Source of the DNA: Alphaproteobacteria bacterium
Lineage (GTDB): Bacteria > Pseudomonadota > Alphaproteobacteria > MPNO01 > UBA830
DNA: 64,000 nt
Assembly: GCA_965243135.1 (NCBI GenBank)
Contig: OZ251539.1
Location: 3,776,001 to 3,840,000 of the forward strand
Direction: 5' to 3'
Part shown: positions 5,462 to 6,684 of the stretch, one piece after another
How positions within the stretch are numbered: position 1 is the stretch's first letter
Layout of the letters: the number at the start of each line of letters is the position of its first letter
Translations under genes and position numbers: made by a program
The notes under the pieces: model-generated
What the model was told of the DNA's origin: nothing
Database searches by the model: none
What the model saw: the letters and a program-made list of their open reading frames with translations, nothing else

Positions 5462-5848
5462 ATGACAGACGCAGCAATGCCCAGCCCGGACGGCATGCTC
5501 AACGCTTACAGGAAGGTAATCCCCTTCGCGCAGGCCTATCGCGAGGACGCGGAGTTCCGCTCCCGGGTGGACGAGGATCCGAAATCCGTCATGGCCGAGC
5601 ATCACTTCGAGGTGCCGCCCGGCGTGGAAGTGCGCATCATGGAAGACACGGACGACACTTTCCACCTGGTCCTGCCGCCCGACCCGAACGTCGTCCTGTC
5701 CGACGAAGCGCTCGGCATGGTCGCCGGCGGCAAGTCGGCGAGCACGATCGGAAGCGCCGGCTCCGCCAGTACGGTCAGCACCGTATGCACCACCGCGAGC
5801 TGCGCGGCAAGCGCCGGCTCCCTGGGATCCGCGGGCACCGCGGGATAA
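5462..5848 (+). CDS. NHLP/proteusin precursor P1 (128 aa); core KSASTIGSAGSASTVSTVCTTASCAASAGSLGSAGTAG
   Basis: Leader motifs DAEFRSRVDEDPK, VRIMEDTDDTFHLVLPPDP, LSDEALGMVAGG (double-Gly cleavage site). Confidence 0.93.
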   Translation: MTDAAMPSPDGMLNAYRKVIPFAQAYREDAEFRSRVDEDPKSVMAEHHFEVPPGVEVRIMEDTDDTFHLVLPPDPNVVLSDEALGMVAGGKSASTIGSAGSASTVSTVCTTASCAASAGSLGSAGTAG

Positions 5849-5910
5849 GCCGGGAGCCCCGGCGGCCGACCGCTCGACTCGTTGTCCACAATCAAGAGGA
5901 GGATCATACC

Positions 5911-6306
5911 GTGGAATATACCGACATGACGCCCGAGGCAGTGCGGATGTACCAATCCAACTTCGCCTCGTTCAGATCGTTGTCCGATCGCTACTGGGAG
6001 GACGAGACCCTGCGCGGGCGGATCGACGCCGGGGACGTGGGAGACTTGCTCCCCGACCTCGGGATCGAGGTCTCTTCCGGCACCGACGTCCGAATCGTGG
6101 CCGACAGCGCCGACACGCGCTACATCGTCCTGCCGCCCGACCCGAATGTCCCCCTGTCGGACGAGACGCTCGGCATGGTCGCCGGCGGCGGCAAGACCGG
6201 CAGCACCGCCGGGACGGTCGGGTCGGCGAGCACCATGGCTTGCTCGTCCGTGCCGTCTTCGGCCAGTTCCGCCGGCACGGCGGGCTCGGTCGGCACCGCT
6301 GGCTGA
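5911..6306 (+). CDS. NHLP/proteusin precursor P2 (131 aa); core GKTGSTAGTVGSASTMACSSVPSSASSAGTAGSVGTAG
   Basis: GAGGAGG RBS before GTG 5911; YIVLPPDP and LSDETLGMVAGG. Confidence 0.92.
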   Translation: MEYTDMTPEAVRMYQSNFASFRSLSDRYWEDETLRGRIDAGDVGDLLPDLGIEVSSGTDVRIVADSADTRYIVLPPDPNVPLSDETLGMVAGGGKTGSTAGTVGSASTMACSSVPSSASSAGTAGSVGTAG

Positions 6307-6324
6307 CCAAGGAGGAACTTGATC

Positions 6325-6684
6325 ATGGAAATTCATGCGAGCGACTACTTGACGAAAGGAACCTACCTGAAGGACGTTCTCGATCCGGAATTTCGAGAGC
6401 GGATGCAGGCGGCTCCAGACGCGGCCTTGACGTCATGGGGCATAGATCTCCCCCCCGGCATCGATGTCAGCGTTCACGTGAACACGGACGACACTTTCCA
6501 CCTGGTCCTGCCGCCCGACCCGAACATCCCCCTGTCGGACGAGACGCTCGGCATGGTCGCCGGCGGCAAGACGGCGAGCACGATCGGAAGCGGCGGCTCC
6601 GCCAGTACGGCGGCAAGCATACCCAGCACCGCCAGCACCGCGTCAAGCGCGTCGACGGCGGCATCCATCGCCTGCGCGAGTTAG
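6325..6684 (+). CDS. NHLP/proteusin precursor P3 (119 aa); core KTASTIGSGGSASTAASIPSTASTASSASTAASIACAS
   Basis: AAGGAGG RBS; DPEFRERMQAAP, FHLVLPPDP, LSDETLGMVAGG. Confidence 0.93.
   Translation: MEIHASDYLTKGTYLKDVLDPEFRERMQAAPDAALTSWGIDLPPGIDVSVHVNTDDTFHLVLPPDPNIPLSDETLGMVAGGKTASTIGSGGSASTAASIPSTASTASSASTAASIACAS

Follow-up and report, generated by a model that had tools for sequence, protein, structure and literature searches.

A three-residue register in the cores of a nitrile hydratase-like leader peptide family as the likely substrate code of a dehydrazole-type proteusin pathway in an alphaproteobacterium

What does it mean when the cores of several peptide precursors carry a serine, threonine or cysteine at every third residue? 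The question is raised by P1, P2 and P3, three adjacent genes of an alphaproteobacterium (GTDB lineage MPNO01; UBA830), and by the more distant P4 and P5. All lie in the window analyzed here, a 64,000-nucleotide stretch of contig OZ251539.1 (forward-strand positions 3,776,001 to 3,840,000; G000:C1:3776001-3840000) from a genome that is a single 6.1-Mb contig (assembly GCA_965243135.1). An initial annotation of positions 5732-6684, which begin at the first codon of the P1 core and end at the P3 stop codon, read these cores as tripeptides with a central hinge and proposed an azol(in)e at every third residue. Through comparison with relatives, related loci and characterized systems, we consider it likely that a dehydrazole-type proteusin pathway acts on P1-P5, with the three-residue register as its substrate code. 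The finding is real but largely explained by the dehydrazole class described in 2023; what seems to be new is an explicit family-wide register rule, a core-less leader protein, an epimerase module with its own leader subfamily, and a set of dispersed precursors.

P1 (5462-5848, + strand), P2 (5911-6306, +) and P3 (6325-6684, +) are small genes encoding precursors of 128, 131 and 119 amino acids with leader peptides of the nitrile hydratase-like type (NHLPs). They are separated by spacers of 62 and 18 nt, AGGAGG-type ribosome sites stand ahead of P2 and P3, and P2 begins with GTG behind its AGGAGG site. Each of the three matches the Pfam family NHase_alpha. A six-frame motif search of the window located P4 (15689-16069, -), which has a leader of a second subfamily, P5 (29683-30090, -) and P6 (38740-39153, +), an NHLP precursor with a non-periodic Gly/Pro/Cys core. 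The leader model TIGR03793 scores P1 at 56.6 bits (cut-off 50.9), P2 at 32.2 (E 6.9e-08), P3 at 47.3, P4 at 45.8, P5 at 50.8 and P6 at 44.6; E-values for P1-P5 run from 1.7e-15 to 6.9e-08, with only P1 above the cut-off. All six leaders end in an invariant V-A-G-G-K. In the cores of P1-P5 the repeated unit is (Ala or Val/Ile/Leu)-(Gly or Ser)-(Ser/Thr/Cys), present five to six times to each side of an irregular centre. Ahead of the first triplet stand the two residues K-S or K-T, and behind the final one come two residues or a longer tail. With the slipped residue in brackets, the core of P1 reads KS AST-IGS-AGS-AST-VST-VCT [T] ASC-AAS-AGS-LGS-AGT AG from position 5732; that of P3 reads KT AST-IGS-GGS-AST-AAS-IPS [T] AST-ASS-AST-AAS-IAC AS; that of P4, KT MGT-VGT-IAT-TST-LPS [C] VGT-AGS-MSS-FAT ARDSL; and that of P5, KT SGT-ASS-GGT-VGS-IPS [T] ASS-VSS-LGC-ASS and then a 13-residue tail. 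The core of P2 keeps one register throughout, with an irregular MAC-SSV-PSS centre. Ser, Thr and Cys make up 42-50% of core residues in P1-P5, and one or two Cys occur in each core. The core strings that the initial annotation gave for P1-P5 are all present in the sequence.

Is the register more than chance? As a statistic we took the maximal count of Ser, Thr or Cys in one register, allowing one register change, and compared it with 3000 composition-matched shuffles of each core. P1 reaches a count of 13, equaled by 0 of 3000 shuffles, and the counts of P3 (13, p = 0.0003), P4 (11, p = 0.004), P5 (12, p = 0.011) and P2 (11, p = 0.027) are likewise above chance, although P1-P3 are paralogues, as are P4 and P5, and the five tests are not independent. 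The periodicity of P6 is not above its shuffles (count 8, p = 0.57). For P1, P3, P4 and P5, the best fit places a +1 slip at core residue 17-20, in agreement with the proposed central hinge. P2 departs from it: no net slip is needed, a single register with one non-conforming triplet in MAC-SSV-PSS fits (p = 0.001 when no shift is allowed), and the proposed parse SS/VPS/S is one of two equivalent readings. The further claim that the slip follows a (V/I/L)PS triplet describes P3 (IPS), P4 (LPS) and P5 (IPS) and fails for P1, where the hinge is VCT-T. A DNA tandem repeat was considered as the cause of the register and rejected; Tandem Repeats Finder, applied to 5400-6750, reported only two 9-nt arrays of about two copies each.

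The pattern extends well beyond the window. A word-seeded protein search with P1, which is identical to sequence P0001 of the resulting set, recovered 108 relatives at 31-100% identity. Pooled with nine related loci and the window, they gave 138 unique cores, of which 121 beat their own shuffles at p <= 0.05; the 17 that fail include some spurious reading frames and some genuinely different cores. Among the periodic cores, 89 have a +1 slip, 32 keep a single register and none has a +2 slip, and the arms are mostly of five to six triplets per side. Position 1 of the triplet is Ala in 56-60%, Val in 13-15%, Ile or Leu in 8-20% and Ser in 1%; position 2 is Gly in 46-49%, Ser in 35-39% and Ala in 4-12%; position 3 is Ser or Thr in 90-94% and Cys in 6%, a share that register fitting inflates and for which the shuffles control. 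Four triplets, AGS, AST, AGT and ASS, account for 677 of 1380. An aliphatic-Pro-(Ser/Thr/Gly)-(Ser/Thr/Cys) element occurs in 38 of the 121, always mid-core (relative position 0.49 +/- 0.05), and in 35 others the centre is Cys-(Thr/Gly)-Thr. Against 1.84 billion cluster representatives, a profile search gave 5624 matches at E <= 0.001, with 1158 at E <= 1e-10 and 51 at E <= 1e-30. Among the best 150 matches, 141 were new; a core could be read in 102 of these, and 72 of the 102 were periodic. Overall, the period-three register in P1-P5 is real, significant and conserved. In the literature that we found, supplementary files aside, no period-three rule is stated for NHLP or dehydrazole cores, and the available text of two papers calls NHLP cores hypervariable and mentions no register (Haft 2010, PMC2887384; Cox 2015, PMC4603692).

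The genes that follow P3 suggest what the register is for. On one strand the order is P1-P2-P3-YcaO-SagB-LanM-like-oxygenase, with gaps ranging from a 4-nt overlap to 168 nt. The first enzyme is a fused cyclodehydratase (6853-9189, +), in which a leader-binding E1-like/winged-helix part precedes the YcaO domain (PF02624, 330.8 bits); it scores 276.9 against a cut-off of 219.25 for the SagD-family YcaO model TIGR03604 and 136.3 against 36.9 for the leader-binding model TIGR03882. The second is a SagB-type flavin mononucleotide-dependent dehydrogenase of the kind that converts azolines to azoles (9227-10597, +; TIGR03605, 155.4 vs 78.4), with nitroreductase and ThcOx matches in Pfam. Together with the azole spacing of the characterized dehydrazole described below, this pair, above curated cut-offs and within the operon, argues for the azol(in)e at every third residue that the initial annotation had proposed.

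The third enzyme is a LanM-like dehydratase (10594-13143, +), the element missing from an azole-only reading. It consists of a DUF4135 domain (PF13575, 221.8 bits) and a shortened LanC-like domain, and its TTG start overlaps the SagB stop codon. TIGR03897 aligns over model positions 78-704 of 932 at 255.7 bits (cut-off 304), and no PF05147 match was found in the protein. An AlphaFold2 model built from 37 sequences (pLDDT 92.3) matched LicM2 (E 6.8e-27) and CylM (E 1.5e-24) in Foldseek, and LanCL1 over only 195 columns. In the family alignment, a single Cys of the C-terminal domain is conserved (29 of 32 sequences), and the seven sequences examined show no CHG motif there; for this reason the canonical Cys-Cys-His zinc site cannot form.

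Last in the operon is a conserved 233-aa protein (13140-13841, +) predicted to fold like a WelO5-type Fe(II)/2-oxoglutarate oxygenase. Its H117-x-D119 motif presumably marks the site as that of a hydroxylase and not of a halogenase. The protein is without a match in Pfam or NCBIfam, its best Foldseek match is WelO5 (5iqu, E 8.7e-07, TMq 0.60), its ESM Atlas neighbours carry PF22814 (WelO5 family), and it is syntenic in four of the related loci (L001-L004) at 66-83% identity. As the structural model is of low confidence (pLDDT 60.8), the WelO5-like assignment is a lead only.

The nine related loci were retrieved with a 23-sequence alignment; their sources are one Acidobacteriota genome and metagenome-assembled genomes of Alpha- and Gammaproteobacteria. 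Six of them (L001-L005 and L008) have YcaO, SagB and DUF4135 genes beside two to five periodic precursors. In L006 and L007 the sequence ends in or shortly past YcaO, and L009 has NHLP precursors with non-periodic cores and no YcaO, SagB or DUF4135 gene in the locus. Full-length LanM-like homologues occur in 4 of 41 genomes of the window's order, its own included, a patchy distribution.

This gene set matches that of the dehydrazoles. As Pei, Zhu and Nair defined them in 2023, their clusters bring together an NHLP precursor, a YcaO, a dehydrogenase, a radical S-adenosylmethionine (SAM) epimerase and 'LanMbC', a DUF4135 enzyme whose cyclase domain has no zinc site (PMC10676384). The window cluster holds a counterpart for each: NHLP-like leaders with Ser/Thr/Cys-rich cores, YcaO with an azoline dehydrogenase, a radical-SAM epimerase, and a zinc-less DUF4135 enzyme, the last recognized from its domain match, structural model and family alignment. 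According to the main text of the same source, more than 50 related clusters are known, mostly in Proteobacteria and Actinobacteria, and two YcaO genes with several precursors occur in one of them, that of an uncultured Candidatus Thioglobus (PMC10676384). The weakest P1 homologue is named from a Candidatus Thioglobus-type organism.

The only characterized member, carnazolamide, is a 30-residue product of the cca cluster of Chryseobacterium carnipullorum and contains eight azoles and eight dehydroalanines, with every dehydroalanine immediately ahead of an azole (PMC10676384). In the text of that study, thiazoles lie at Cys17, Cys20 and Cys29 and an oxazole at Ser23; azoles at Thr7, Thr10 and Thr26 follow from a T7A variant and a truncation series; Ser8, Thr13 and Ser30 are intact; and Pro15 is in the D form (PMC10676384). 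From these numbers we deduce that azoles 7, 10 / 17, 20, 23, 26 and 29 keep a period of three with a +1 slip around an x14-Pro15-Dha16-thiazole17 centre (Dha, dehydroalanine), and that the unmodified Thr13 is itself in register. The IPS-T, LPS-C and VPS-S centres in the window would read in the same way, so that the 'extra' residue may be the azole site of a proline-inserted four-residue unit. Carnazolamide and the window cores are thus alike in every-third-residue azole sites (candidate sites here), two arms offset by one and a central proline. A pattern search for a CcaA-like core among the collected proteins gave no match.

The dehydrazole dehydratase is described as leader-independent and as acting only on Ser that precedes an azole, and the dehydrazole YcaO as leaving the C-terminal residue unmodified (PMC10676384). 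The two residues that end nearly every core here are consistent with such sparing. Because the LanM-like homologue of carnazolamide biosynthesis turns pre-azole Ser into dehydroalanine, the 'small residue' of position 2 also acquires a role, and the azole/dehydroalanine pairing is compatible with the sequences, each core having three to six position-2 Ser ahead of a candidate azole site.

The sequence shows the leader, the Gly-Gly site, the register, the operon, the enzyme families and the synteny; the steps of the pathway are inferred from those families and from carnazolamide. The fused YcaO would bind the leader and cyclodehydrate the position-3 residue, and SagB would oxidize the azoline to an azole. 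The leader-independent LanM-like enzyme would phosphorylate a position-2 Ser ahead of an azole and eliminate it to dehydroalanine, leaving position-2 Gly unchanged. About 10-12 azoles and 3-6 dehydroalanines per core are candidates, the hinge marks being approximate. The mid-core slip, typically aliphatic-Pro-Ser-(Thr/Cys), would form a four-residue unit separating two arms, and in the P4/P5 subfamily this hinge is the likely target of the adjacent epimerase, which would give D-Pro. The C39 domain of the exporter would cut after Gly-Gly, export would proceed via the HlyD adaptor and the outer-membrane channel, and the oxygenase and the hydroxylase-like proteins may add further tailoring. By analogy with carnazolamide, the likeliest product has two arms built from repeated units of (Ala/aliphatic)-(Gly or dehydroalanine)-azole.

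Several points weigh against assigning the window to this pathway. Gly and Ser are about equally frequent at position 2, and dehydroalanine would be sparser than in carnazolamide. In carnazolamide itself only 8 of 20 Ser/Thr/Cys residues are cyclized (PMC10676384), so not every position-3 residue need be modified. The register of carnazolamide was deduced from main-text residue numbers rather than from the CcaA sequence, and the eighth azole is unplaced in it. The hinge of P1 has no proline, and the epimerase was not found, with the window's protein as query, in three of the five other genomes that have periodic cores. Curated cut-offs are missed by the LanM-like enzyme (255.7 vs 304), the PoyD-like epimerase (315.7 vs 325) and, for TIGR03793, four of the five precursors; the YcaO/dehydrogenase pair, the leader-binding domain and three NHLP export proteins are all above theirs. 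Finally, the homologue queries included the core, which biases the 138-core set toward similar cores, and its periodic fraction is not a prevalence among all NHLP precursors.

The best-surviving alternative, although an unlikely one, is a plain linear azole peptide with azoles at position 3, in which the LanM-like enzyme serves other precursors, such as Cys-rich non-periodic ones. The 46-49% of Gly at position 2 would suit such a product, and the seven non-periodic NHLP precursors of the genome offer alternative substrates. Phazolicin from Rhizobium is also a precedent, as this linear azole peptide carries its azoles three residues apart and is not dehydrated (PMC6783444). The LanM-like gene, however, is translationally coupled to SagB and syntenic with periodic precursors in six of the nine loci, Ser makes up 35-39% of position 2 against 1% of position 1, and the characterized homologue acts exactly on pre-azole Ser (PMC10676384).

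Neither of two known azole peptide groups with a period of three accounts for the locus in full. Phazolicin, which targets the ribosomal exit tunnel, shares the azole at every third core residue, the YcaO/dehydrogenase pair and an alphaproteobacterial host, but the available description gives it a short conventional leader and a basic polar core, with no NHLP domain, dehydratase, epimerase or mid-core slip (PMC6783444). Heterocycloanthracins are precursors of thiazole/oxazole-modified microcins (TOMMs) that likewise place a heterocyclizable residue at every third position, in Cys-Xaa-Xaa repeats; as described, they use Cys rather than Ser/Thr, and have Bacillus-type leaders, a variable number of true repeats and no dehydratase (PMC2674419). 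Strict membership in the LAPs (linear peptides that contain azol(in)es) or TOMMs does not fit the window locus, whose conserved gene set includes a LanM-like dehydratase, an epimerase and an oxygenase.

A second alternative takes its cue from the epimerase, a PoyD-like radical-SAM peptide epimerase (14162-15658, -; TIGR04517, 315.7 bits) directly beside P4, and holds that it converts many position-1 aliphatics to D-residues, giving a regular mixed-chirality foldamer. The enzyme does belong to the PoyD family, and position 1 is Ala, Val, Ile or Leu, which are typical targets of proteusin epimerases. Its distribution is against this idea: it was found in only two of the five other periodic-core genomes and in one of the nine loci (L008), and it travels with P4-type precursors rather than with the YcaO operon. 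In those two genomes, at L010 (G041:C1:937000-949000) and L011 (G042:C1:3653000-3665000), an 83% identical epimerase lies far from the YcaO operon. It directly adjoins two or three P4/P5-subfamily precursors, a close P4 copy among them, and all of these epimerase-linked precursors have an aliphatic-Pro-Ser-(Thr/Cys) centre. The sole characterized epimerase of the class flips one mid-core proline, late in the pathway (PMC10676384). Because of this precedent and the linkage to Pro-hinged precursors, the hinge proline is favoured over position-1 residues as the target. We regard the mixed-chirality foldamer as distinctly improbable, and the initial annotation, which had placed possible D-residues at the aliphatic position, was probably wrong in that detail.

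Nor does the locus belong with the polytheonamide-type proteusins. These share the NHLP leader and a PoyD-family radical-SAM epimerase, but as cited in the dehydrazole study they have no YcaO, many alternating D-residues and a period of two rather than three (PMC10676384); here, the epimerase also stands outside the YcaO operon. The epimerase and the P4/P5 leader subfamily make up a separate module. N-terminal residues 37-76 of the epimerase match the NHLP-clan model NF038399 (30.2 bits, cut-off 40), and the enzyme seems to carry a piece resembling the leader of its substrates.

A lanthipeptide-like product, in which core Cys capture dehydroalanines to form thioether rings, is very improbable. 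Each core does have one or two Cys and the enzyme keeps a LanC-like fold, but the C-terminal domain, with its single conserved Cys and no CHG motif, has no canonical zinc site, Cys makes up only 3% of core residues, and carnazolamide has no thioether ring in the structure described (PMC10676384). That the register is a chance or low-complexity artefact of a Ser/Thr/Ala/Gly-rich tail is almost certainly wrong: Ser, Ala, Gly and Thr do make up 82% of core residues, but shuffles rarely match the observed register, either in the window cores or in the 138-core set, there is no DNA repeat, and the register is held across homologues of 30-92% identity.

With the dehydrazole-type pathway as the preferred reading, the locus is an addition to the dehydrazole branch of the proteusins, distinguished by tailoring genes of its own and by an unusually large precursor set. 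It differs from cca in several respects. Position-2 Gly is as frequent as Ser, the leader is predicted to be removed at Gly-Gly by the C39 exporter rather than by an S8 protease, the S-methyltransferase is absent, and a WelO5-like oxygenase and two Asp/Asn-hydroxylase-like genes are extra. Five periodic precursors lie in the window and seven elsewhere, and the epimerase is set apart with its own leader subfamily, unlike that of cca.

The leader model identified 22 places in the genome, comprising eight window open reading frames, twelve elsewhere and a true nitrile hydratase alpha gene counted twice. Judged by eye, seven precursors outside the window have periodic cores (at 961798, 2208891-2209914, 3085207, 4192389 and 4921507 of G000:C1), and six non-periodic NHLP precursors are dispersed through the genome as well. 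Three of the periodic ones make a second P1-P2-P3 triple at 2.209 Mb, and the others stand singly at 0.96, 3.09, 4.19 and 4.92 Mb; those at 3.09 and 4.19 Mb are identical, 1.1 Mb apart. Also by eye, the seven cores seem to be the same as shuffle-tested ones, those at 961798 (P0255) and 2208891 (P0002) being examples. No maturation enzymes lie near the seven dispersed precursors. Since YcaO (two copies), SagB, the LanM-like enzyme, the oxygenase and the epimerase occur within this genome only in the window, one locus probably matures about twelve periodic precursors. Prochlorosins reportedly differ from this arrangement: their leaders are of the Nif11 type, the cyclase of their LanM is active, and they have lanthionine rings and lack a register. 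They are similar in combining many dispersed precursors, conserved leaders, variable cores and one enzyme set (PMC10783134).

Also recurrent is an 85-aa protein (37902-38159, +) that is an NHLP leader alone, without a Gly-Gly site or a core, and matches TIGR03793 at 40.4 bits over model positions 3-60 of 77. Copies 68-77% identical are found in L003 (10864-11115), L005 (2826-3068), L006 (9275-9472), L007 (8442-8672) and L008 (12246-12482), in Alpha- and Gammaproteobacteria and one Acidobacteriota genome, and in L003, L005 and L007 the gene lies 130-730 nt upstream of YcaO. From its sequence and setting, this core-less protein may be a leader supplied in trans.

Tentatively, and with more doubt than conviction, the observations may be taken further. 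Period three with one mid-core slip could be a design rule of the whole family (121 cores and at least 72 further 50%-identity clusters), specifying two stiff arms of (aliphatic)-(Gly/dehydroalanine)-azole units joined by a proline or Cys-Thr hinge; one locus could make a natural library of rods from a dozen precursors; and the 85-aa leader protein, which accompanies YcaO in distant phyla, could be trans-acting. The two-armed foldamer of the initial annotation is likewise a conjecture. These ideas of arms, rod library and trans leader are stated nowhere in the accessible literature text.

Other window genes are compatible with secretion of the products. These include a HlyD-type adaptor for NHLP secretion (18153-19403, +; TIGR03794, 267.9 vs 156.2), an NHLP export ATP-binding cassette (ABC) transporter with a C39 peptidase predicted to cut after Gly-Gly (19765-21963, +; TIGR03796, 1020.7 vs 853.3; PF03412, 124.4 bits), a second ABC subunit (21968-24904, +; TIGR03797, 843.3 vs 709.4) and an outer-membrane efflux protein (25714-27834, -; PF02321, 185.4 bits). 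The adaptor, the C39-ABC protein, the second ABC protein and the Gly-Gly site are together the features by which NHLP bacteriocin export is recognized in the available text of Haft 2010 (PMC2887384).

Several further features of the window touch the same genes. A second fused YcaO cyclodehydratase (34658-37030, -; PF02624, 331.5 bits) has 96.5% protein identity to the first, and the gene forms the two halves of inverted repeat I1 (2362 nt, 98% DNA identity; 6832-9193 and 34654-37015). The two copies bracket the cluster, 25.5 kb apart, and SagB and the LanM-like gene are single-copy. Upstream of P1, a sigma-70-like promoter match lies at 5402-5429 (0.1 expected). Between P3 and YcaO, a G+C-rich hairpin is predicted at 6713-6745, the spacer has the same fold energy as its shuffles (z = 0.02), and one terminator-like site was seen against 0.9 expected. 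No RNA datasets containing window positions 5400-9200 are listed.

Around P4 and P5, two genes of the Asp/Asn beta-hydroxylase family are 39% identical, one near P4 (16971-18071, -; PF05118, 125.4 bits) and one near P5 (32105-32716, -), and P4 and P5 are the only cores with Asp or Asn, in their tails. P5 is flanked by two NlpC/P60 peptidase genes (27835-28632, -; 30537-31331, +) that are 74% identical and lie in inverted repeats I2 and I3. At G000:C1:141534-142322, another NHLP precursor has a third copy beside it (95% identical). Such genes could serve immunity or processing and move together with precursors. A six-frame reading of 29200-29640 (-), within repeat families D4-D7, finds a decayed P4/P5-type precursor copy that reads only across frame changes and one stop codon, its core a P5-like first arm joined to a P4-like second arm. 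Just upstream of it (region 29200-29760, -), the last ten codons of the P5 core region are duplicated in tandem. An APH-type phosphotransferase (33202-34236, +) recurs near clusters in L003 (6974-7999, 52%) and L007 (4862-5785, 40%) and could be a kinase for self-resistance or peptide phosphorylation.

As to habitat, DNA nearly identical to the window is present in sequencing runs of five studies, one labelled sponge metagenome, and four sponge-metagenome runs share 0.44-0.66 of sampled words with it; several relatives also come from metagenome-assembled genomes.

In summary, the dehydrazole class consists so far of one compound of no known activity, and the locus and its relatives indicate that the azole spacing of that compound is probably a conserved substrate code. 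Such a code would predict the modified residues in hundreds of unstudied precursors. The contrasts within the family, Gly versus Ser at position 2 and three hinge types, suit the study of how YcaO enzymes choose their sites. With 12 periodic precursors and one enzyme locus, this alphaproteobacterium is a candidate for library-style biosynthesis.

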